A DNA stretch of 64,000 nt from Minisyncoccota bacterium (GTDB lineage: Bacteria > Patescibacteriota > Minisyncoccia > Phycocordibacterales > CAIZLB01). The position numbers and the translations under genes are program-made. The stretch lies in NCBI GenBank assembly GCA_021734945.1, contig JAIPIA010000001.1:308415-372414 (forward strand). Direction: 5' to 3'. A model generated the notes under the pieces. That model searched no databases and was not told where the DNA came from. It worked only from the letters and a program-made list of their open reading frames with translations. Within the stretch, counting starts at the first letter, position 1, and each line of letters begins with the position of its first letter. Positions 3,366-44,643 of this stretch are shown piece by piece.

Positions 3366-4751
3366 CTAATCTTTTAAAAAATAATTATTTATTTCATTAA
3401 AAATTTCTATAATTCTCGCTTCATATTTCGTTTTTATATTTTTACCACTGGTATCAATTAATCCACTGACACCGTCTCTATGTTTAACTTCAGGTTTATC
3501 TCTAATATCGTTAGTGGGGATACATACAAAATTATATTTAGGAAATTCCTTACTGAGCGAACATGCTAAACTAGACATATTATTATCTAGTATGGATGTA
3601 ATTTTTTTAAAACCTAAATCTTCAAGCATTTTAATTACTTTTCGTGTATTTGGGGCACCTCCAACGCCCCACCCATAAAATACTCCATTAGTCTGAATTT
3701 GTTTTATTTCAAGAATCTTATTTAAAAAGACAACGTCTTCTTGTCCTTCTGTTAAGATTATATTATCTTCAAGAAAGAAAATTTCACTAGCATCCAAACC
3801 GAGAATATGTGGATTATTTAAGTTATCTAAAAAAGGAGTAATATCATTAGTGGTTTTTTCTTCTAATTGATAAATTTTTGTTCCAGAAGTCTCTTTAACT
3901 GTTCTTGCAATTCGTCCACCGTTTAAAATTGAAGGCCAACTGACAAAAAAAGGAGAATGAGTAGAGATTATGATTTGTCTATCTTTTGAATATTCTAAAA
4001 GTAATTTTAATAATTTTCTTTGGAGTGACGGATGTAACGACAACTCTGGCTCGTCAATAAATATTAAGTCTTCAGATCGACTATCATACAAAGCATCAAC
4101 AATTGTAAAAACACTCAATAATCCTTCTCCGGCCCCGTCGCTATTATGAGAAGAATTATCATTAATAAACTTTAAATAATAATTTCCATTATCTGCCTGA
4201 TCAATGTTCCAGTTCGGAGAGTATCCTAAAACTTTACTCAATTCCGAATTAAAAGTTGTTGGATCTTTTTGGATTTGGAAAAGTCTATGTGAAAAATTAT
4301 CAAACTGTGAACCTCTAACTGCTTGTAGATTTGAAGTGCTAATATATTGGTTACGATCATAAATACTTTTACCAAAAAATGGGCTGAATGTTCTTCTTGA
4401 TGGTAAAGTTAAGAATTTTACTTTCTCTTTTTCAAGTTTATTTGAAATATACTCTGTTTCGCTTCCTCCATTAGATGTTGTTTTAAGAGTTAAGCTATTA
4501 TCGTCTATGTCGAAAATTGATATTTCAATTTTATCACCAGCTATTTTATTTCTTTTACCTTCCGTAAAGCTCGGGGTTTGATTTTGGGATATAGCTCTGA
4601 ATGCCTCATAAATTGTTGATTTACCGGAGTTATTAGGGCCAACAATAACTGTCAATCCACTACCATTATTTCCATTTTTTGGTACAGCAATATTTAACGT
4701 TTGCTTTTCATTAAAACCTCTTAAGCCTAAAATTTCTATTTTTTTGTACAT
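3366..4751 (-). CDS. OLD-family ATP-dependent endonuclease-like protein (N-terminal ABC-type ATPase + C-terminal Toprim-like region; GajA/OLD-like)
   Basis: Walker A GPNNSGKST, Walker B/D-loop LIFIDEPELSLHP, H-loop ISTHSP, then an acidic ILTEGQEDVVFL Toprim-like segment. The likely start is MYKKIEIL (4751); the longest ORF reaches 4787. Confidence 0.6.
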   Translation of the reverse strand: MYKKIEILGLRGFNEKQTLNIAVPKNGNNGSGLTVIVGPNNSGKSTIYEAFRAISQNQTPSFTEGKRNKIAGDKIEISIFDIDDNSLTLKTTSNGGSETEYISNKLEKEKVKFLTLPSRRTFSPFFGKSIYDRNQYISTSNLQAVRGSQFDNFSHRLFQIQKDPTTFNSELSKVLGYSPNWNIDQADNGNYYLKFINDNSSHNSDGAGEGLLSVFTIVDALYDSRSEDLIFIDEPELSLHPSLQRKLLKLLLEYSKDRQIIISTHSPFFVSWPSILNGGRIARTVKETSGTKIYQLEEKTTNDITPFLDNLNNPHILGLDASEIFFLEDNIILTEGQEDVVFLNKILEIKQIQTNGVFYGWGVGGAPNTRKVIKMLEDLGFKKITSILDNNMSSLACSLSKEFPKYNFVCIPTNDIRDKPEVKHRDGVSGLIDTSGKNIKTKYEARIIEIFNEINNYFLKD

Positions 4752-4803
4752 AGCGTATACAACGAGCGTACGAGTCCTATGTAGCATTCGTACTAGCTCT
4801 TGT

Positions 4804-4904
4804 TGGTTGCGGAGATGGGATTTGAACCCATATCTTTTCCTTTCGAAAAGCTCTAAATAAAAGCTCTTTGAAAGAGAAAGGTGCTACCATTACACCACTC
4901 CGCA
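4804..4904 (-). tRNA. Atypical 101-nt tRNA-like gene (canonical acceptor, D and T arms, encoded CCA; best register gives anticodon UUC with ~31 nt where the variable arm belongs)
   Basis: Acceptor TGCGGAG/CTCCGCA, T-arm ATGGG-TTCAAAT-CCCAT, D-arm GTGT..GCAC. The anticodon arm TTTCT-CTTTCAA-AGAGC closes with only about 4 pairs. There is an internal 9-nt direct duplication AGAGCTTTT. Confidence 0.45.
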
Positions 4905-29530: not shown

Positions 29531-29604
29531 GACGCAGTGGCGAAGCTGGTCAACGCGACAGTCTGCAAAACTGTTATGCGCCGGTTCGAGCCCGGCCTGC
29601 GTCT
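29531..29604 (+). tRNA. tRNA-Cys (GCA)
   Basis: Acceptor GACGCAG/CTGCGTC, anticodon arm ACAGT-CTGCAAA-ACTGT, T-arm GCCGG-TTCGAGC-CCGGC. Confidence 0.8.
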
Positions 29605-29893
29605 CAAAAATAAGCTAATTTAGTGAGATAAATTTTGTTGGTTAATTTGACGGGCAAATTTGATGGATGAATTAATGAGGGGCGTTTAATATATCTGAGG
29701 CGCGGAACTTATACACAAGTTTCTTATTTGGAACAGAATTATGCACGGTTATAATTCGGGAAAATAACCGCACAAGTCCTATTGAGAAGTATCTACTACA
29801 CCAATTGTCTTTGCTTGGGAAGAAAGAAAGTAATCGCTATTTCATGTTTACTAGACACCAAGAAAATGGTAAATTACAGTTCTGTTAGATAAT

Positions 29894-29977
29894 GCTCGGG
29901 TGGAGAAATGGTAGACTCGGGGGACTTAAAATCCCCTGGCCTCAACAGCCGTGTGGGTTCGAGTCCCACCCCGAGCA
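29894..29977 (+). tRNA. tRNA-Leu (TAA) with long variable arm
   Basis: Anticodon arm GGGGA-CTTAAAA-TCCCC, T-arm TGGGTTCGAGTCCCA, acceptor GCTCGGG. Confidence 0.8.
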
Positions 29978-30134
29978 CAAAGTAAGAAGCTAAAAAGTAT
30001 CAGTCGCAGTGTACAAAATTCAGTCAATTTTCCCTGACTTTATACAAGCGTTTTACCTTGCGAAATAAGCATTTTTTTGTTACTATTTTTTTCTGTATAG
30101 ATTAGCTCACTTTCGTGACTGAACTAATACAAAT

Positions 30135-30207
30135 GCATCCGTAACTCAGTTGGTAGAGTAGCTCCCTCTTAAGGAGACGGTCGTAGGTTCGAATCCTACC
30201 GGGTGCA
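30135..30207 (+). tRNA. tRNA-Lys (CTT)
   Basis: Anticodon loop CTCTTAA on stem CTCC/GGAG, T-arm GTAGG-TTCGAAT-CCTAC, acceptor GCATCCG/CGGGTGC. Confidence 0.7.
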
Positions 30208-30276
30208 CAAGTAAGTTAGAAACTCTGCAAAAGTCAGTCTGCATGCAATTTCCAACTTATGATTTGACCAAAATAT

Positions 30277-30358
30277 GGGCGAGTGGCGGAATTGGTATAC
30301 GCGCTAGTCTTAGGAACTAGTCCCGCAAGGGTTGGAGGTTCGAGTCCTCTCTCGCCCA
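30277..30358 (+). tRNA. tRNA-Leu (TAG) with long variable arm
   Basis: Anticodon arm CTAGT-CTTAGGA-ACTAG, T-arm GGAGG-TTCGAGT-CCTCT, acceptor GGGCGAG. Confidence 0.8.
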
Positions 30359-30512
30359 CAGAAATAAAATAAAAAGTTTATCTTCGGATAGGCTTTTTAT
30401 TTTTATAAATAATGGTTAAATTTACTAAAATTGACTTATATATGAATCTATGTTAATATATATACAGACGATCTTTATTAGATCGTCACCTCACCCACAA
30501 TCCCACTACTCA

Positions 30513-30794: not shown

Positions 30795-30927
30795 CCAATC
30801 CACCTGTCACAATTCAAAAAGTCATCCTTACGGATGCAACCCGCGCAACACAACGGCGGGTTTTTACATTTAAAAAATTGAGACAAATAAAACACCTTTT
30901 CTTCTAGTTAATAAAAAGCGAGAAAAA

Positions 30928-30970
30928 GAAAACCACATGTATGGATGTAATCCCGGATACATGTGGTTTT
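30928..30970. repeat. Conserved hairpin element, copy 1 (stem CCACATGTAT/ATACATGTGG, loop GGATGTAATCCCGG)
   Basis: Related copies at 42244-42270 and 50548-50586 share the 22-mer TGTATCC(G/A)GGATT(A/G)CATCCAT. Confidence 0.6.
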
Positions 30971-30992
30971 CTGCTTTCGAGCGTTTTTATTT

Positions 30993-31277
30993 CTACTGAC
31001 CAAATATCTGCGTAACGCCAGTATCAGATGGAGATACACCAATAGTGTTCATGATGAGGTTCATTATTCCGAATACTGAGATCATAATGAACATACCAAA
31101 AATTCCGTACATTATGTGCTTACTACCTGTAGCACGCCCATCTTCACTATCAGAATCTTTTATATACATAAAAACGCCATACAAAAAAACCAGTACCGCA
31201 ACAGCAAAGAGCAACATTATTATCGGGTTAATGATAACTTGGTTAATTTTGTGAATAAATGCGAGTGCTGGCTTCAT
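30993..31277 (-). CDS. Small two-TM membrane protein, paralogue 1 of a six-gene tandem family (VirB2/TrbC pilin-like)
   Basis: Shared architecture: TM helix, a charged G/D/E..AR loop, then a second TM helix; some members also have an N-terminal signal peptide. Confidence 0.4.
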   Translation of the reverse strand: MKPALAFIHKINQVIINPIIMLLFAVAVLVFLYGVFMYIKDSDSEDGRATGSKHIMYGIFGMFIMISVFGIMNLIMNTIGVSPSDTGVTQIFGQ

Positions 31278-31303
31278 GTGTTGAATTTATATGTATCGTG
31301 AAC

Positions 31304-31678
31304 CTATCTCTGCTGGAAGTACCCAGCTGCGTTTGGAAGCTGAGGAGCTGCAGGAGCTGTGTTGTCCAAGTTCACACTTCTAACCAAAATATTTACCAAT
31401 CCCCATACAGATACCATTACGAAGAGTGCAACAACACCCCAAATAATATATCCCTGTGCTTCTTTTCGAGCTTCACCATCACCACCAGCAATAACAAATT
31501 TGAAAATACCCCAAAGGAAGATCAATACTGTAAGAGCAATGATGAATGGGATAAGTCTGTTGATGAGGTCGTTTGCCTGAGCCAAAAGTCCGAGTAAACC
31601 TCCAATAGTCTGTGCTCCAGCAATAGCAGGAGTTATGAGTACCAAAAGTGCAGAAAGTTTTAGAAATGTCTTTTTCAT
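31304..31678 (-). CDS. Paralogue 2: signal peptide plus two TM helices with conserved C-terminal block WGVVALFVMVSVWGLVNIL
   Basis: Near-identical nucleotide stretch CCAATCCCCATACAGATACCATTACGAAGAG shared with paralogues 3 and 4. Confidence 0.5.
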   Translation of the reverse strand: MKKTFLKLSALLVLITPAIAGAQTIGGLLGLLAQANDLINRLIPFIIALTVLIFLWGIFKFVIAGGDGEARKEAQGYIIWGVVALFVMVSVWGLVNILVRSVNLDNTAPAAPQLPNAAGYFQQR

Positions 31679-31783
31679 CTTTTAATAACGAATTATAATT
31701 TTATTAAGAGACTTCTTTTTAAAAAGTCGTACTCTAATTATACTTTGTTTTAGCGTTTGAAGATAGCAGGCTGTGGATTGCTT

Positions 31784-32074
31784 CTATCGAACTGGTATCA
31801 ATTGTTCAAGATTTTGAGGAGTTGAGTTGTTCAAATGTAACGATGTTACCAAAATATTTACTAATCCCCATACTGAGACCATTACGAAGAGTGCAACGAT
31901 ACCCCATGTAATATACCCTCGAGCCTCCTCTCTTGCTGCACCATCTGAGCTTGTAACCATTCTAAAAATTCCCCAAATGAACACGAGAACTGTCATAGCA
32001 ATGATAAGAGGCATCACCACGTTTATAAGTTCTTTTATCATCTGTATTATTGCGAATATTCCTGTAGCTCCCAT
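31784..32074 (-). CDS. Paralogue 3 (WGIVALFVMVSVWGLVNIL)
   Basis: Same motif and nucleotide-level conservation as paralogue 2. Confidence 0.5.
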   Translation of the reverse strand: MGATGIFAIIQMIKELINVVMPLIIAMTVLVFIWGIFRMVTSSDGAAREEARGYITWGIVALFVMVSVWGLVNILVTSLHLNNSTPQNLEQLIPVR

Positions 32075-32092
32075 ATATTTATATTATTTAAA

Positions 32093-32449
32093 TTATCTTA
32101 ATTGCGGAATAACTAAGCCTCCTCCGAAAAAAGTGGATGTAAGTATACTTACCAATCCCCATACAGATACCATTACGAAGAGAGAGACGACACCGTACGT
32201 AATAACACCAATCGCCTCTTTTCGGGCATCTTCACTATTACTTCGTACAAGCTGAAAAATTCCCCAGATAAAATAAAGCAGGGTAAGGCCGACGATGAGA
32301 GGTACAAGGGTTTTAATCATACCTATAAATAGTCCCACCAATGAACCAAAGTCATACGCTACCTGACCATAAGCCTGCGTCTGCAAGGGAAAAGTAATAA
32401 GAAGCAGAGCCGCTGCGCTTATAATTTTTTTAGATGATGAAAATTTCAT
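32093..32449 (-). CDS. Paralogue 4 (signal peptide; YGVVSLFVMVSVWGLVSIL)
   Basis: Same family. Confidence 0.5.
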   Translation of the reverse strand: MKFSSSKKIISAAALLLITFPLQTQAYGQVAYDFGSLVGLFIGMIKTLVPLIVGLTLLYFIWGIFQLVRSNSEDARKEAIGVITYGVVSLFVMVSVWGLVSILTSTFFGGGLVIPQLR

Positions 32450-32469
32450 ATGTGTATTTATGTTTTCTA

Positions 32470-32811
32470 TTATATACCTAATTCGTTAACTGTTGCTTGT
32501 ATTGCCGTTGCAATAACTCGAGCTCCCAATACAATAGCTCCTCCAACAATAGTCCATGTCAACGTCTGGTGAGCTGAACTAATCTGCTTTTCGTCCCCTC
32601 TTGCAGTAACATATTTGAAACCAGCAAGAATAAGGAAAAATACAACAACAATAGCACCTAGCAAAATAACAACATCAAGTACTTGAAGCAGGAAGCCATC
32701 TAACGTGCTTGCCTGAATAGGGTTAGTGAAATACTGCTGAGCACTAAGTAAGGTTGGAAGGAGCGTAAAACCAGATGCTAGAAACGTAGTAGTAATTTTT
32801 TTAATATTCAT
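32470..32811 (-). CDS. Paralogue 5 (signal peptide, two TM helices, ARGDEKQ loop)
   Basis: Same architecture. The start is set at MNIKKITTTF; the longest ORF would overlap paralogue 6. Confidence 0.4.
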   Translation of the reverse strand: MNIKKITTTFLASGFTLLPTLLSAQQYFTNPIQASTLDGFLLQVLDVVILLGAIVVVFFLILAGFKYVTARGDEKQISSAHQTLTWTIVGGAIVLGARVIATAIQATVNELGI

Positions 32812-32876
32812 AGCTGTAATTATATAATAGATTTTAATCTTCACAAACTTTTCACTAGTAGCCAAAAGATGAATTC

Positions 32877-33308
32877 CTAGCGCAGCAGACTGTATGCATT
32901 GTCTACTCCCAAAAACTTCAACATGGTTGCCACGAGCAACCAAGCTGCCATAGTGAAAAATATACCTTTTATCACATTACCAAAGATGCCGTTTGCAGTT
33001 TTACGTGCCCCAGTATCATCTCCAGACGTCATATAGAGATACCCTGCATATACCATTGAAACAACAGCCGCCATTGCAGCAAGGTAAATAGCATTTTGGA
33101 GGATATTTTGACCCATTTTCATCAACTGTGGCCATCCACATGCTACTGTCACTTGACCATTAGCACCTTGTACAGGCTTTCCATAACATTCATCTGGGAC
33201 AAACGATACCAACCCAGCAGCGTCAACTACAACCGGTGAAATAAAAGCACTTAATACTGTAAGTATTGTAAAGACTTGCAGTATGAGTAATTTAATTGTT
33301 TTTTTCAT
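32877..33308 (-). CDS. Paralogue 6 (signal peptide, Cys-containing ectodomain, two TM helices, SGDDTGARK loop)
   Basis: Same architecture. Confidence 0.4.
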   Translation of the reverse strand: MKKTIKLLILQVFTILTVLSAFISPVVVDAAGLVSFVPDECYGKPVQGANGQVTVACGWPQLMKMGQNILQNAIYLAAMAAVVSMVYAGYLYMTSGDDTGARKTANGIFGNVIKGIFFTMAAWLLVATMLKFLGVDNAYSLLR

Positions 33309-33313
33309 TTTTA

Positions 33314-34621
33314 TTATTTTACTTTTAGTAATCTATCCAGTTTAAGTTTTGCATCACCAACAGCATTACTTAGCTTATCTTTTCCAGATGTTATCGATTC
33401 AATCATGTCTTTAAATACCAAGTCACTTCCCGCTGGATTTGGATCATGCCATGATTTTGATTGGATAGCCGATCTGTAAAATACAGTCATATATGCGTCC
33501 TTTGCGGGTTCAGCAAGCAAATCACGCCGTACAGGGGGCAAATTATATAAATCTCTCCAGATAACAATAGAATCTTTGTCCGTAAGTTTAGAAATAACAC
33601 CCAACGCCCCCGCAAAGTTTTTAGTATTTTTTACAATTGCAAAAGCAGACATCTTTCCGTACACATTAGGTACACCACCAGCCTCTTGAGGAATCTGAGC
33701 AACATCAAAATTGAGGTTTGGATTTTTATCTTGCAAATGTTGCAGTTCACTTGCGTATCCAAAATAGAAAGCAAGATTTCCACCAAGGAAAGCATCTTGT
33801 GAATTTGGAAGAGATCTATTCCATGTATATAGAGGCTTCGAAGGATTTGCAAAAGATGTATAAAAATCAAGAACTGAAGCAATAGGAGAACTTTCATCAA
33901 GACTTTTTTCGAGGTCTTTATCAATCACTGAATACACTTCATCATTCTGTGGATTTTTCTCAGTAATATTGTTTCCAGATTGGAAGAAAAGTGACGCCAA
34001 AATTTCTTTTGCATTTTTGACATTTGAATATTCACCAAACGGTACTAGTGCTTGCGTTATATTGGAAGTATCAGTTCTTTGAATGATAGAGGGTGCAATT
34101 TGATTCATTTCTTTCCAGGTCTGTGGAGGTCGAGAAATAGCACTCCGAGCAAGTATATTTTTGTTGTAATACATCACCATAGGATCAACAGAAAATGGAA
34201 CTCCCATAATACCGTCTCGAGCAATAAAAATACTTGCTCCATCAATGAAAGTATTGAGGTAATCCCTCTCTGCAAATGTTGTAAAAGGTATTGACTGTAA
34301 CTTATTTTTTTGAGAATACAACATGTCGTCATCCAAGAGTACAGCGTCAGGTCCGTTACCTTCTGCGAGAGCGTTTACAAAGTCAGCTTGAAACGTCTCA
34401 GGGTCTTTCTCAACGTACGTAACATCAATAACCGTAGATCTGATATTGATGTTACGTACCATCTCACTTATATAGTACCCAGGTAGCGTTCCCCAAATTG
34501 TTGCCTTTGGCACTGCGGCACGACTAGAACCTCCAAATCCTGCAAAAACTGCAATACCAACAACAGCAATAAGTATAAAGATTGCGAGAAAAGCTAATTG
34601 AAATGTACTTACGTTCTTCAT
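33314..34621 (-). CDS. Extracellular solute-binding-protein-like protein (ABC-transporter SBP family 1 fold) with an N-terminal TM anchor
   Basis: N-terminal TM helix and ~400-aa periplasmic-binding-protein-like body. No permease or ATPase gene is adjacent. Confidence 0.4.
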   Translation of the reverse strand: MKNVSTFQLAFLAIFILIAVVGIAVFAGFGGSSRAAVPKATIWGTLPGYYISEMVRNINIRSTVIDVTYVEKDPETFQADFVNALAEGNGPDAVLLDDDMLYSQKNKLQSIPFTTFAERDYLNTFIDGASIFIARDGIMGVPFSVDPMVMYYNKNILARSAISRPPQTWKEMNQIAPSIIQRTDTSNITQALVPFGEYSNVKNAKEILASLFFQSGNNITEKNPQNDEVYSVIDKDLEKSLDESSPIASVLDFYTSFANPSKPLYTWNRSLPNSQDAFLGGNLAFYFGYASELQHLQDKNPNLNFDVAQIPQEAGGVPNVYGKMSAFAIVKNTKNFAGALGVISKLTDKDSIVIWRDLYNLPPVRRDLLAEPAKDAYMTVFYRSAIQSKSWHDPNPAGSDLVFKDMIESITSGKDKLSNAVGDAKLKLDRLLKVK

Positions 34622-34662: not shown

Positions 34663-35325
34663 TTACTCTAAATGCCCTGGATGTTTTGATGCAAAACTCG
34701 TTTCTTCTTCCTGAACATTATACCCTACATTAGTGAGTTCCCCAGGAGTTGGTGTGTGGGTAAGTACATACAACATTCCATAGTGATGCGAACCTGCATC
34801 AATAAAACTCTCAAGATGAAACCCCTCCTTTTCAAAAATTTCTCTCGCCTCATCTTTTGTAACTACATGATCAGGATGTGGACCTATTTGGCCATATGAC
34901 TCATTCCAATCAATAACTACGACTTTTCCATCATGTTTAAGCACTCTTTTAGTTTCAGAAACAATCTCGTCCAAATTTTCGAGTGAAAAAAGTGTATTTG
35001 CAATAACAATCCTATCTACAGATGCAGTCACTAAGCCAGACCCTTTTTTTGACTCCAAATCTCCTTGAATAACCTCCACATTTTGAAGACCGGTACGGAC
35101 AGCCTCATTTTTGATTCTTTTTAAAAAATCAGGATGTGAGTCTATAGCAAATACCCTACCGTATGGACCCACTTTTTTGGCAAGTGCAAGAGTATAGAAT
35201 CCAGCCCCAGAACCAAAATCAGCCACTGTCATACCCTCAGCTACAAATAACTCAGAAATAACTTTGTTAGGATCGGAAAACATGTGCATATATTTTAGCA
35301 TAGTTTTTACCCAAGCAAACAACAT
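34663..35325 (-). CDS. Class I SAM-dependent methyltransferase
   Basis: Motif I VADFGSGAGFYTLALA and an acidic motif II; ~220 aa. Confidence 0.6.
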   Translation of the reverse strand: MLFAWVKTMLKYMHMFSDPNKVISELFVAEGMTVADFGSGAGFYTLALAKKVGPYGRVFAIDSHPDFLKRIKNEAVRTGLQNVEVIQGDLESKKGSGLVTASVDRIVIANTLFSLENLDEIVSETKRVLKHDGKVVVIDWNESYGQIGPHPDHVVTKDEAREIFEKEGFHLESFIDAGSHHYGMLYVLTHTPTPGELTNVGYNVQEEETSFASKHPGHLE

Positions 35326-35340
35326 GTTACAATTTTAAAA

Positions 35341-35976
35341 ATGAATTCTAAAATACCTGCAGAAAACAAGAAACCAAAACTCCGGAAATATGTACTCACA
35401 GGAGGAACTTCTGTTGGAAAAACTACTATTATAGATTTACTAGCAAAACTCGAGCATCCCACTTTTCCAGAATTTTCTAGAATTATTATAAATCGCGAGC
35501 TTAAAAAAGAAGATGGCGTCTTACCTTGGACCAAACCAGATATTTTTCAAGATATGTATGCAAAGGAACAAGTTCGTGAAGAAATGGATATTGAAAAATA
35601 TTTAGGTAATACACGTGAAGAAAAAGACTATATTTTTATGGACAGATGTATTGTCGACGGTATAGCTTTTTGTCAACACGCAGGAGTTGTTGTTCCTCAT
35701 GAAATAGACAATCATATACAGAAATTACGTAAAAATGGCCAAGATTATAACCTTATCTTCATTCTCGGACCGTTGGAAACTTATCATTTTGATGAAGGCC
35801 GTATTTTAAAACCTGAAGAAAGCCTCTCAATACAGGCAATGCTTGAAAAAGCTTATGTAGAGCGTGGATACAAACTTATTCCTGTACCTTTTATGACGCC
35901 CCAAGAGCGTGTGGATTTTATCTTTGCAAAAATTAAAGAGTACGAAGAAAATTTATCTAAACCAAAAAGTAACTAA
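35341..35976 (+). CDS. P-loop NTPase (AAA_28/NadR-kinase-like)
   Basis: Walker A GGTSVGKTT near the N-terminus; ~210 aa. Confidence 0.45.
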   Translation: MNSKIPAENKKPKLRKYVLTGGTSVGKTTIIDLLAKLEHPTFPEFSRIIINRELKKEDGVLPWTKPDIFQDMYAKEQVREEMDIEKYLGNTREEKDYIFMDRCIVDGIAFCQHAGVVVPHEIDNHIQKLRKNGQDYNLIFILGPLETYHFDEGRILKPEESLSIQAMLEKAYVERGYKLIPVPFMTPQERVDFIFAKIKEYEENLSKPKSN

Positions 35977-36951
35977 ATAGACGACATAAGCAAAAGTTAG
36001 GAACATGCCTTGCCACTTCTCAATGGTGTATTTTTTACCAACCAAAAGCACAACAAACAGTAAGACACTAGAAAATATAAGAAAAATAAAATCAATATCA
36101 GAGCCTTTATCTATTGGTAATGGATTTATAACAGAAGTTATACCCAAAATCCAAAAGATATTAAAAATATTAGAACCTACTATATTTCCAATTGCGATGT
36201 CTGACTGTTTCTTGAATGCAGCAACAATTGAAGTCGCCAATTCAGGTAGCGATGTGCCGATAGCAACAATTGTTAGGCCTATCATTGATTCCGAGATTCC
36301 GAACAATGTCGCAATTGAAACTGCCCCGTCAACTATCCATTTTCCACCTACGATAAGGCCAGCCAGCCCGAGCACTATATATATTATACTTTTGGAAATA
36401 GACATCGGAGAACCAACAGACTGGATAGATTCTTTAGAATTATTAATTTGTTCACTCAAATCAGGTGACTCAGGCGATTTGATTTTAGCAATTTTAAATG
36501 TGTATATAAGGAACAAAACAAAAAAGAAAATAAGTACCAATCCATCCAACCTAGAAAGGATATCTATATTACTAGCACCAAAAATACTATCCTTTGAGAG
36601 AATAACGAGTAAAAGAGTTGCACCTATAGCAAACGGTATTTCTCGAAATGCAGTATTTTTATGGACTATTAAAGGAAAAATAAGAGAGCTAACACCTAAA
36701 ATCAAGAGCACATTTGCAATGTTACTTCCAATGATATTTCCAACCGCAAGATCTACGTTTCCTGAAAAAGCAGACATCAGGTTAACTACGAGTTCTGGAG
36801 CAGACGTACCAAATGCCACTATTGTAAGACCTATTACAATACTAGATATACCATATCTCTCAGCGATTGAAACAGACCCGTCAACCAACATATCAGCACC
36901 TTTTACTAACAGCGCGAAACCGACAATAAACAGAAGAATTGTAAGAAACAT
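35953..36951 (-). CDS. Ca2+/cation antiporter (CaCA family, YrbG-like)
   Basis: Duplicated alpha-repeat motifs GTSAPELV and GTSLPELA; ~10 TM segments. Confidence 0.75.
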   Translation of the reverse strand: MFLTILLFIVGFALLVKGADMLVDGSVSIAERYGISSIVIGLTIVAFGTSAPELVVNLMSAFSGNVDLAVGNIIGSNIANVLLILGVSSLIFPLIVHKNTAFREIPFAIGATLLLVILSKDSIFGASNIDILSRLDGLVLIFFFVLFLIYTFKIAKIKSPESPDLSEQINNSKESIQSVGSPMSISKSIIYIVLGLAGLIVGGKWIVDGAVSIATLFGISESMIGLTIVAIGTSLPELATSIVAAFKKQSDIAIGNIVGSNIFNIFWILGITSVINPLPIDKGSDIDFIFLIFSSVLLFVVLLVGKKYTIEKWQGMFLTFAYVVYLVTFWFR

Positions 36952-43914: not shown

Positions 43915-44643
43915 ATGAATGATGAAAATAATTCTTTGGGACAGGTTTCTGGACAACCTTCAATGCAAGACAACCTTAATGACACTATTTTAGAGGCAAG
44001 TGAAGTACCAACAGGGACACCTCTTACATTGGAAAAATACGAAACTGAAATATATGACGTCGATGGAGAGCTTAATCCAGTAGCGCCACAGAATACTCAA
44101 AACCATCACAAAGATGGTATCTCTTGGAAATTTATTTTTTTCATTATCATTATTCTTCTACCCATTCGGCTTTTCGTAGCTGAACCATTTTTAGTATATG
44201 GCAGTTCAATGGAACCAAACTTTGATACAGGAGACTATCTTATTGTTGATGAACTTTCATACAGAGTCTCAAATCCAAAACGTGGTGATGTTGTTGTCCT
44301 ACGCCCACCGACAGACGAAACTAAGCATTTCATCAAAAGAATAGTCGGTCTACCAAATGAGACGATTGATGTTAAAGGAGATCAAGTAACTATCTACAAT
44401 GCAGCGAACCCAAATGGTCTACTTTTAAAAGAGCCATATCTTAAGTTTCACAGCGACAAAGAGGCTCACTTTGATCTCAAAGACAACGAGTATTTTGTTA
44501 TGGGTGACAACAGAACAGTGAGTTACGACTCTCGAAGTTGGGGTCCATTGACAAGAGACCACATTACTGGCAAAGCTTTCTTACGTTTGTATCCTTTCAA
44601 TTCTATTAGTATACTTCCCGGCGACAGTTCAAAATTCAAGTAG
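43915..44643 (+). CDS. lepB: Signal peptidase I
   Basis: SSMEPNF (catalytic Ser), KRGDVVV, GDNRTVSYDSRSWGP boxes; N-terminal TM helix. Confidence 0.8.
   Translation: MNDENNSLGQVSGQPSMQDNLNDTILEASEVPTGTPLTLEKYETEIYDVDGELNPVAPQNTQNHHKDGISWKFIFFIIIILLPIRLFVAEPFLVYGSSMEPNFDTGDYLIVDELSYRVSNPKRGDVVVLRPPTDETKHFIKRIVGLPNETIDVKGDQVTIYNAANPNGLLLKEPYLKFHSDKEAHFDLKDNEYFVMGDNRTVSYDSRSWGPLTRDHITGKAFLRLYPFNSISILPGDSSKFK

Follow-up and report, generated by a model that had tools for sequence, protein, structure and literature searches.

Tandem arrays of VirB2-like pilin genes have already been published for Patescibacteria (Wang 2023; Quinonero-Coronel 2025), the later survey comprising 441 arrays of 2–11 genes in 383 assemblies (Quinonero-Coronel et al. 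2025; PMC12102498). An array was defined there as at least two genes matching PF18895 or PF04956 (E < 0.001, coverage > 50%), arranged in tandem or with a one-gene gap, in a patescibacterial genome (PMC12102498). Ca. Southlakia epibionticum ML1 carries a six-pilin array inside an essential T4SS cluster, SEML1_0006-0019 (PMC10633639, PMC12857230), and the pilin genes themselves are reported to be essential (PMC10633639). A further related array is the "Sec secreted array" of TM7x. VirB4 is present in 2,417 of 3,035 Patescibacteria assemblies. With regard to filaments, only a "potential to elaborate conjugative pili" has been stated for Patescibacteria (PMC12857230), and pili are generally absent from monoderm T4SSs (PMC12102498). 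Tandemly amplified, divergent virB2 genes are also found in Bartonella and in Anaplasma phagocytophilum (cited in PMC12102498). The T4SS and its pilins are essential in the one genetically tractable species of the CPR/Patescibacteria. We know of no study establishing what the T4SS and pilins of these bacteria transport or touch.

More distant points of comparison are provided by RP4 TrbC and Agrobacterium VirB2 (PF04956), in which a signal peptide precedes a two-helix hairpin with a short charged loop containing basic residues; the solved VirB2/TrbC pilus filaments contain bound phospholipid. Small two-helix pilin-like proteins are likewise found in Mycoplasma ICEs (Mbov_0395 and MMCAP2_0565, NF045849), where they are associated with a monoderm (MPF-FATA-type) T4SS. 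Proteins with the fold of solute-binding proteins (SBPs) can be tied to a T4SS and not to an ABC permease of their own, as is the case for the family-5 peptide binder PrgZ of pCF10 and for ChvE of Agrobacterium, which signals through VirA.

The locus described here is chromosomal and belongs to a Candidatus Paceibacteria MAG (CPR/Patescibacteria; locus tags K9M11_01700-01725). It was analysed within a 64-kb stretch of DNA, referred to as the window, and all of its features lie on the minus strand. Downstream of gyrA, the gene string starts with a class I SAM-dependent methyltransferase (34663-35325; Pfam Methyltransf_31, 70.3 bits), followed by a MalE-like SBP with an N-terminal hydrophobic anchor helix (33314-34621; SBP_bac_8) and six pilin genes. 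The first of these, g6 (g6-type, 32877-33308, 143 aa), encodes a signal peptide, an extracellular Cys-bearing segment and a two-helix hairpin, and the second, g5 (g5-type, 32470-32811 with corrected start, 113 aa), has a conserved NP(I/L) motif before TM1. Next come three genes of a middle class, namely g4 (32093-32449, 118 aa, with signal peptide), g3 (31784-32074, 96 aa, without signal peptide) and, after a 105-nt spacer (31679-31783), g2 (31304-31678, 124 aa, with signal peptide). The last gene, g1 (g1-type, 30993-31277, 94 aa, without signal peptide), is of a type that is nearly always the final gene of its array, and the operon ends at an intrinsic terminator (30923-30971), a hairpin followed by UUUUCUUUUU, with a folding energy of −29.8 kcal/mol (z = −7.95 vs shuffles).

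The six consecutive minus-strand genes of the preliminary description were found as ORFs at these positions and are judged real. Its length range of 94–157 aa holds at the lower end, but not at the upper. The 157-aa version of g5 is an ORF-finder artefact that begins at a TTG (32470-32943) and overlaps g6 by 67 nt, and the ATG at 32811 gives 113 aa instead, a start called identically in GenBank (MCF7865199.1) and in an independent Logan assembly. A pilin HMM run over the window matched exactly six ORFs, g1-g6. In GenBank, g3 alone is named "pilin" (100% identity with MCF7865197.1, a Paceibacteria MAG protein), and the other five of the six genes are "hypothetical protein".

The six-gene array falls within the operational definition of a Patescibacteria VirB2 array given by Quinonero-Coronel et al. 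2025. It shares with the published arrays a tandem set of small pilins that are divergent in sequence, conserved in structure and detectable with PF18895/PF04956, and its highest pairwise identity of 57% is slightly above the 54% maximum of that study. Like the ML1 array, it comprises six pilin genes on the chromosome of a CPR host with no relaxase nearby. The kind of array has been known from publications of 2023–2025, so the locus represents no new kind of system and is largely ordinary in this respect. What distinguishes these loci is the SBP gene that is always attached, and the methyltransferase–SBP pair is not mentioned for ML1 or in Quinonero-Coronel et al. 2025.

Profile comparisons show the six small proteins, predicted helical-hairpin membrane proteins, to be homologous and to belong to the T4SS pilin (VirB2/TrbC) family. 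All six matched PF18895 (T4SS_pilin) with E ≤ 1.1e-4 over 52–69 of the 71 profile positions. Scores for g2 (30.1 bits), g3 (36.3), g4 (28.6), g5 (31.1, or 31.9 when read from its corrected start) and g6 (28.1) exceeded the gathering cut-off, 26.6 bits, and g1 scored under it at 22.6 bits. The profile of g1 orthologues aligned to the g2-type profile with an hhalign probability of 99.7% (E 2.6e-26), the g6-type to the g5-type profile with 99.6%, and such ties connect all classes (99.7%, 99.6% and 97.8%, E down to 1e-26). The assignment to VirB2/TrbC-type pilins, proposed at the outset, was thereby put to a profile test for an unrelated family and survived it, with 28.1–36.3 bits on PF18895 for g2-g6; the name of PF18895 rests on homology, not on experiments with these proteins.

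A second model, PF04956 (TrbC/VirB2, cut-off 27.9 bits), was reached by the 113-aa form of g5 with 27.9 bits, equal to the cut-off, and gave no match for g1, g2, g3, g4 or g6. Among the g5 orthologues, 75/75 match PF18895 and 67/75 match PF04956 (E ≤ 1e-3, best E 5.5e-11), and g5 appears to be the most canonical TrbC/VirB2-like member of the array. The best NCBIfam match of all six proteins was NF045849, significant for g1-g5 (E 3.5e-7 to 0.01) and not significant for g6 (E 0.33). As every score (29.8 bits for g1, 10.7–25.6 for the other five) lies below its cut-off of 40 bits, the array proteins are not members of this equivalog, and their likeness to Mbov_0395 and MMCAP2_0565 is that of small two-helix pilin-like proteins. 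With RP4 TrbC and Agrobacterium VirB2 they have in common the signal peptide, the hairpin and the short charged loop with basic residues. Unlike in these Gram-negative systems, only one of the six paralogue classes reaches PF04956, the host is a monoderm, and no VirB3, VirB4 or VirB5 gene is adjacent.

The SBP gene had been regarded as an orphan located after the array. In fact, it is conserved and, in transcriptional order, immediately precedes the pilins, its stop lying 5 nt from the start of g6, and both are part of one gene string. Across 80 loci with an SBP orthologue, 4–7 pilin ORFs come directly after it in all 75 that extend past the SBP (one to three if the contig breaks off earlier), and at L005 and L006 the SBP stop and the first pilin start overlap by 4 nt. 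In 52 of 65 related loci, the gene next upstream of the SBP is a methyltransferase orthologue, separated from it by a median of 16 nt. The protein scored 79 bits on SBP_bac_8 (cut-off 27) and 43 bits on SBP_bac_1 (cut-off 26). Its AlphaFold2 model (pLDDT 90.5) has a helix at residues 6-27, and the top Foldseek matches are sucrose/maltotriose, mannobiose, cellodextrin and maltodextrin binders (E ~1e-20 to 1e-21). The SBP is thus predicted to be a membrane-anchored, MalE-like binder of oligosaccharides (family 1/8), which sets it apart from PrgZ and ChvE. The window and the annotated flanks of L001 and L004-L008 yielded neither an ABC permease nor a transporter ATPase. The placement of the SBP, and in 52/65 loci of the methyltransferase, before the array leads to a biochemically testable hypothesis, i.e. 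sugar or host-glycan recognition coupled to a pilus.

Within the array, g2 is the best-conserved paralogue, with 67–85% identity to its orthologues vs 29–58% for g5 and g6. Clustering at 90% identity placed it in a cluster of 17 members and left the other five pilins as singletons. The spacer between g3 and g2 contains a putative internal promoter with a −10 box, GTATAAT (31737-31743), as well as a DnaA-box-like CAATCCACA (31772-31780; the window copy has 2 mismatches) and a weak stem-loop (31710-31729). In 44 of 54 arrays, the widest gap is the one before the penultimate pilin gene, and TTATCCACA, allowing at most 1 mismatch, is present in 26 of 52 spacers, corresponding to 4.1 per kb vs a background of 0.34 per kb (Poisson P 2e-19). 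The distance from the DnaA-box-like motif to the −10 box is 23–40 nt across spacers. RNA folding of the g3-g2 spacer was not significant (z = −0.82), and the 5' spacer stem-loop, being confined to close relatives, is not put forward as conserved. The putative upstream promoter region of g2, with its DnaA-box-like site, is the third usable fact to come from the comparison, besides the attached SBP and the ordered gene classes (see below). Being the slowest-evolving paralogue and having its own promoter-like upstream spacer, g2 is a candidate for the major subunit, and the other five pilins may be minor or specialised subunits.

As had been noted before, the window contains no VirB4, VirB6 or relaxase gene. 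None of these, nor VirD4, was matched among ~62 non-nested ORFs of at least 120 aa, and the few ORFs left out are all at most 160 aa long and therefore too short for any of the four. For the flanks, ORFs of at least 400 aa without a homologue in the window were listed at 88 loci and 20 of them were scanned with Pfam. No T4SS machinery within 10 kb of related arrays was found among these 20 large unmatched ORFs, which encode aminoacyl-tRNA synthetases, GyrB, SMC, GroEL, PurL, surface proteins and unknowns. This differs from ML1, where the array is located within the VirB4 cluster. With no machinery gene in the window or the checked 10-kb flanks, the tie between array and T4SS in the source genome is only indirect. 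Two genomes that carry the operon, GW2011_GWA2_40_14 (L049) and Athens0714_16 (L040), are marked "Yes" for the presence of VirB4 in Table S1 of PMC12102498; the published Patescibacteria genome table has no entry for GCA_039795775 or GCA_964550955. A gene for signal peptidase I is located in the window at 43915-44643.

In our view, the data are best explained, with a probability of roughly 0.7, by a string of methyltransferase, anchored sugar-binding protein and pilin genes whose six pilins form a T4SS-assembled heteromeric pilus or conduit for host contact. The pilins would insert into the cell membrane, four of them via Sec signal peptides that are perhaps cut by the signal peptidase I mentioned above. 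A VirB4-type T4SS machine, encoded elsewhere in the genome, would then extract them and assemble a short heteromeric pilus or conduit, in which g2 would serve as the major subunit and the remaining five as minor or specialised ones. At this same structure on the cell surface, the SBP probably binds an oligosaccharide from the host, either to recognise it or to capture it. The whole would serve an episymbiotic lifestyle through host contact or exchange, a role that has also been proposed for the essential pilin array and T4SS of the saccharibacterium S. epibionticum. We know of no filament observed in any Patescibacterium. Moreover, relatives in which two or three pilin units are fused into one polypeptide are many and make up most of the top matches (for example a 354-aa protein encoded at 8525-9589 of L006), and such fusions are awkward for single-subunit extraction into a helical filament.

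The frequent natural fusions suggest units that work side by side, and they lend some weight to an alternative that we regard as unlikely, according to which these VirB2-family homologues build no extended pilus and form a hetero-oligomeric membrane channel or platform, either as part of a T4SS translocon or as the uptake partner of the SBP. The invariable coupling of the array to an SBP, together with the failure to find VirB4 in the checked 10-kb flanks, fits a channel, as does the lack of an ABC permease or ATPase adjoining the SBP in the window or the annotated loci. In addition, monoderm T4SSs are mostly without pili (PMC12102498). Still, canonical TrbC/VirB2 relatives are pilus subunits, no known transporter family is made of VirB2-like hairpins, and one conserved paralogue with its own promoter among divergent others is the typical pattern of major and minor subunits. 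A quite doubtful further reading treats the methyltransferase–SBP–pilin string as a self-contained, Paceibacteria-wide SBP-coupled uptake or adhesion organelle with a DnaA-box-controlled major pilin promoter. In it, the anchored oligosaccharide binder would cooperate directly with a heteromeric VirB2-like filament or conduit in recognising host glycans or taking up sugars from the host, possibly without a classical ABC permease. If true, this would be a novel function for T4SS pilins, and control by a DnaA box would tie production of the appendage to replication or the cell cycle.

The age and order of the paralogues speak for a heteromeric pilus or conduit. Protein identity among the six is 14–57% in pairwise comparison, and for each of them distant relatives possess an orthologue at the corresponding position. 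In the orthologue tree the paralogues group by array position, not by genome (g4, for example, with L1_c and L4_c). The comparison shows four classes, all of them ancient and arranged in constant order: the g6-type with its Cys pair, the TrbC-like g5-type, the g2/g3/g4-type and the short terminal g1-type. The pilin that directly follows the SBP is nearly always of the g6-type, the g1-type is last in most arrays, and the number of middle-class genes differs by species from 1 to 4. Class positions and hallmarks (the cysteines of g6, the NP motif of g5, the short signal-less g1) are retained down to 36% SBP identity, and C41 and C57 of the g6-type are invariant across 61 orthologues. Recent duplication, which the preliminary description had deduced from shared DNA stretches, is not borne out, because all six classes of paralogues are ancient and hold stable positions in relatives.

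The near-identical, conversion-like 30-nt stretches themselves are real and were replicated in three other genomes. The exact run shared by g2 and g4 is 34 nt long, and the best 30-nt windows have 28/30 identical positions for g2/g3 and 27/30 for g3/g4. Over a 33-nt stretch of TM2, codons are identical within each genome and different between genomes. In the encoded LFVMVSVWGLV, paralogues of the same genome share 8–9 of 9 synonymous-capable codons vs ~3 expected (P ~2e-5 to 2e-3). Codon bias was rejected as the sole cause, as ~3/9 identity would be expected from it and non-preferred codons are shared as well (e.g., GTA, which accounts for 12% of Val codons in L004). The pattern fits short-tract gene conversion, which would hold the middle-class paralogues of any one genome to an identical TM2 core.

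Conversion tracts among the middle-class genes, the varying number of these genes across species and the divergence of the paralogues could also be reconciled with interchangeable alternative major pilins that would vary the cell surface or switch the host range, a role proposed for the Bartonella and Anaplasma arrays and suggested for Patescibacteria arrays too (PMC12102498). We hold this to be very improbable. The Bartonella and Anaplasma arrays are interpreted as a single subunit in several antigenic or host-range variants, whereas the present classes are ancient, follow a set order and are each conserved. The retention of class-specific positions and hallmarks indicates non-redundant roles, a notion that the grouping of orthologues by position and the essentiality of the S. 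epibionticum pilin genes (PMC10633639) both fit. Four ancient ordered classes thus argue for a heteromeric machine and against interchangeable variants.

At the protein level, hydropathy analysis gave two hydrophobic segments per mature protein in all six cases, in agreement with the two-TM architecture assumed initially. An N-terminal signal-like segment is present in g2, g4, g5 and g6 and lacking in g1 and g3, consistent with the earlier statement that some members carry a signal peptide, and every charged-loop motif quoted at that stage was recovered from the six proteins. The (Y)GVVALFVMVSVWGLVNIL block, originally ascribed to all members, is confined to g2, g3 and g4; it is degenerate in g1 and different in g5 and g6. 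The loop motif is conserved, several glycines are invariant and W92 is nearly so. In the AlphaFold2 model of g2 (pLDDT 82), a signal helix (residues 2-21) is followed by a hairpin of two helices (27-64 and 68-102), so that the predicted protein combines the features by which a VirB2/TrbC-type pilin is structurally defined: a predicted signal peptide, a two-helix hairpin and a short polar/basic loop. A structure search of this model against the PDB gave nothing significant (best E 0.31; an archaeal conjugative pilin at E 3.9), and PDB sequences searched with the g2-type and g5-type alignment profiles returned zero pilin chains. Fold matches of the g2 model included ion channels, Mediator subunits and similar proteins and were dropped as evidence either way, since a two-helix hairpin is too simple for the fold to discriminate.

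Weak, spurious matches to other membrane families (Claudin_3, DctQ, fumarate reductase subunit D) and the indiscriminate fold search would suit unrelated small hydrophobic proteins, holin-like or immunity proteins whose pilin-profile matches reflect TM composition only, a notion so improbable that we consider it largely refuted by the profile results, given five of six proteins above a curated Pfam cut-off, the agreement of the independent TrbC/VirB2 model across g5 orthologues, the inter-class hhalign values and the conserved loop, glycines and W92. A DctQ/TRAP identity for g5 was likewise discarded, as the weak Pfam matches were judged compositional and the SBP belongs to a type other than DctP.

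Six successive minus-strand open reading frames (ORFs) of 94, 124, 96, 118, 157 and 143 amino acids (g1 to g6, numbered by coordinate and transcribed from g6 to g1) occupy positions 30993-33308. The 157-residue call for g5 arises by mechanical extension to a TTG codon and runs 67 nt into the preceding gene; the true start is the ATG at 32811, giving a protein of 113 amino acids, and a matching start is found in GenBank (MCF7865199.1) and in an independent Logan assembly. Each mature protein contains two hydrophobic segments, all loop motifs quoted in the preliminary description were located in the six ORFs, and pairwise identities range from 14 to 57%. Signal-peptide-like N-terminal segments were found in g2, g4, g5 and g6, and are absent from g1 and g3. 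The AlphaFold2 model of g2 (pLDDT 82) comprises a signal helix and a hairpin of helices 27-64 and 68-102. Under locus tags K9M11_01700-01725, g3 is annotated as "pilin" and the remaining five as "hypothetical protein"; g3 is 100% identical to a GenBank "pilin" on a 383,159-nt contig of a Candidatus Pacebacteria/Paceibacterota MAG. In g6 (32877-33308), the first pilin of every array, C41 and C57 lie between signal peptide and first transmembrane helix and are invariant in 61 orthologues. These cysteines point to an extracellular loop closed by a disulfide bond, a feature that would be unusual among VirB2-type pilins.

The array proteins are members of the T4SS pilin family. The PF18895 (T4SS_pilin) cut-off of 26.6 bits was passed by g2 (30.1), g3 (36.3), g4 (28.6), g5 (31.1) and g6 (28.1), with g1 at 22.6 bits, and g5 with its corrected start scored 27.9 bits against PF04956 (TrbC/VirB2), exactly the cut-off of that model. 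The earlier VirB2/TrbC-type assignment is thus sustained. PF18895 was matched by 75/75 g5 orthologues and PF04956 by 67/75 (best E 5.5e-11). NF045849, the NCBIfam Mycoplasma-ICE pilin-like model, was the top NCBIfam match of all six proteins, each score falling below its 40-bit cut-off. Profile-profile comparison ties the pilin classes together: g1-type with g2-type at 99.7% (E 2.6e-26), g6-type with g5-type at 99.6% (E 9.4e-25), and g5-type with g2-type at 97.8% (E 9.8e-13). Within the 64-kb window, a family HMM matched exactly these six ORFs; in a wider search, 14,001 representatives at 50% identity matched the family at E <= 1e-3. Foldseek and PDB sequence searches returned no significant match to solved pilins, a result regarded as uninformative because the fold is so simple.

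Arrays of this kind have been described before. In the saccharibacterium Southlakia epibionticum, several predicted pilin subunits, themselves essential, are encoded within the T4SS cluster, which is also essential (Wang et al. 2023, PMC10633639); a 2025 review summarizes them as six VirB2-like pilins of conserved structure and divergent sequence (PMC12857230). PF18895 and PF04956 searches across 3,035 Patescibacteria genomes yielded 441 arrays of 2-11 pilin genes each across 383 assemblies, and virB4-proximal VirB2-like genes in 1,135/1,948 assemblies (Quinonero-Coronel et al. 2025, PMC12102498). Such arrays are therefore an established kind of feature, of which the present locus is one more member; the array is confirmed but mostly known, with some comparative detail unreported. 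It is accompanied by a gene for a solute-binding protein (SBP, 33314-34621), and an SBP is mentioned in neither PMC10633639 nor PMC12102498. A literature search found no paper connecting an SBP with a pilin array.

The SBP gene lies upstream of the pilins, ending 5 nt before g6, and does not follow the array as had been stated at first. An SBP alignment was scanned against one genome per GTDB species, giving 178 relatives, the best 80 of which were kept as loci (36-80% identity). Same-strand pilin ORFs directly follow the SBP gene in 75 of these 80, usually four to seven, with fewer (one to three) on contigs that end earlier; the other five loci stop at the SBP gene or a short way beyond it. 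In two loci (L005/L006) the SBP stop and the first pilin start overlap by 4 nt. The SBP is thus part of the pilin locus. Its AlphaFold2 model (pLDDT 90.5; N-terminal helix at residues 6-27) matches, at E values of about 1e-20 to 1e-21, oligosaccharide-binding SBPs: Atu4361 (sucrose/maltotriose), YcjN, a mannobiose binder, a cellodextrin binder and MalE. A SAM-dependent methyltransferase gene (34663-35325; Methyltransf_31/11/25) is located directly upstream, as in 52/65 loci (median gap 16 nt); gyrA lies upstream on the same strand in 62/65, ending less than 1.5 kb from the SBP gene in 54/65. In the window, an AAA_28 ATPase gene (+) and a Na/Ca-exchanger gene (-) at 35341-36951 separate gyrA from the methyltransferase gene. 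With exchanger homologues at one related locus and AAA_28 homologues at none, this pair looks like a local insertion. The surroundings are ordinary chromosome (IF-2, RbfA, four tRNAs, GyrA, ClpB, DnaE, ThrRS, FtsA/FtsZ, signal peptidase I, LeuRS, among others); the tRNAs (Cys, Leu-TAA, Lys-CTT, Leu-TAG) are encoded in a cluster at 29531-30359, between rbfA and the array 3' end. Between array and rbfA, three related loci (L004, L007/L008) carry a Band_7/SPFH gene and a called gene of 179-189 amino acids with no Pfam match; neither is present in this interval of the window.

Divergent Paceibacteria carry orthologous arrays in the same genomic surroundings. Among the best 80 of 178 relatives, gene order is nearly fixed: g6-type, TrbC-like g5-type, one to four middle-class genes (g2/g3/g4-type) and, at the array end, the short g1-type without signal peptide. 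When 28 pilins from five genomes were placed in a tree, each window paralogue clustered with the orthologues at its own array position rather than with paralogues of its own genome. The recent duplication proposed initially is rejected by this topology; the six paralogues are ancient. The near-identical 30-nt stretches reported with it do exist: g2 and g4 share an exact run of 34 nt, and the best 30-nt windows reach 28/30 for g2/g3 and 27/30 for g3/g4. Middle-class paralogues of the same genome share codons in the second transmembrane core LFVMVSVWGLV, with 9/9 identical codons in window g2/g4, in two pilins of a related locus (L001 d/e) and in all three pairs of L004, and 8/9 in L007, where the codon usage of each genome predicts about 3/9 (P about 2e-5 to 2e-3). 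Which codons are shared varies between genomes, and non-preferred ones are among them. This pattern is a signature of short-tract concerted evolution on top of old paralogy, probably through gene conversion. g2 evolves most slowly (67-85% identity to orthologues vs 29-58% for g5/g6), and it alone of the six belongs to a 90%-identity cluster with many members (17).

The genes are separated by 5-65 nt, with one larger gap of 105 nt ahead of g2 (31679-31783, minus strand). The biggest gap precedes the penultimate, g2-type gene in 44/54 complete arrays (median about 100 nt vs about 8 nt elsewhere). These spacers are enriched 12-fold in TTATCCACA (DnaA-box consensus, at most one mismatch), found in 26/52 spacers at 4.1 per kb vs a background of 0.34 per kb across the remainder of the loci (Poisson P 2e-19), usually right behind the preceding stop codon and with a TATAAT-like box 23-40 nt downstream. 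The window spacer, which has equivalents in the related loci (L001-L088), contains CAATCCACA (31772-31780) and GTATAAT (31737-31743). Judged by this motif, the presumed major pilin could be under DnaA-dependent control. RNA folding of the spacer gave no significant structure; downstream of g1, a strong terminator hairpin (-29.8 kcal/mol, z = -7.95) is followed by a U-run.

No VirB4, VirB6, VirD4, relaxase or ABC permease is encoded in the 64-kb window, in agreement with the preliminary description for VirB4, VirB6 and relaxase, and no VirB4 was found within 10 kb of any related array. Support for a link to a T4SS is indirect: VirB4 occurs in 2,417/3,035 Patescibacteria assemblies, two genomes that bear the operon (GW2011_GWA2_40_14, L049, and Athens0714_16, L040) appear as VirB4-positive in Table S1 of PMC12102498, and the usual place of virB4 in Paceibacteria is near dnaA/dnaN. 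We consider it most likely, at roughly 70%, that the array encodes pilin subunits of a Patescibacteria-type T4SS. The pilins would enter the membrane and be assembled, presumably into a filament, by a machine encoded elsewhere; g2 would be the major subunit, the other five specialised minor subunits, and the SBP would recognise or capture glycans on that same structure at the cell surface. As the chief alternative, pilin-family proteins could form an assembly embedded in the membrane without a filament. This is hinted at by natural polypeptides that fuse two or three pilin units, which are frequent in relatives (L006 8525-9589, 354 aa; L042 11423-12151; L064 13576-14313; P0259-P0301) and form the majority among top matches of the representative search. 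Such fusions imply a side-by-side placement of the pilin units and do not fit easily with single-subunit extraction into a filament.

Near the window start, an ORF6N-domain gene (948-1475) and an AAA_21/AAA_15 (AbiEii/OLD-like) ATPase gene (3366-4787) enclose HD, 2'-5' RNA ligase-like and CYTH genes; the group may be a defence or RNA-repair islet. A 98-nt Rfam tRNA match on the minus strand (4807-4904; 56.7 bits) without an ARAGORN call may represent a tRNA with a long variable arm or intron. In a related MAG (L087, 2297-5116, minus strand), a 939-aa protein gives matches at E 2e-22 to the major-vault-protein shoulder domain and to Vault_3 repeats, a vault-type family that is unusual in a bacterium.
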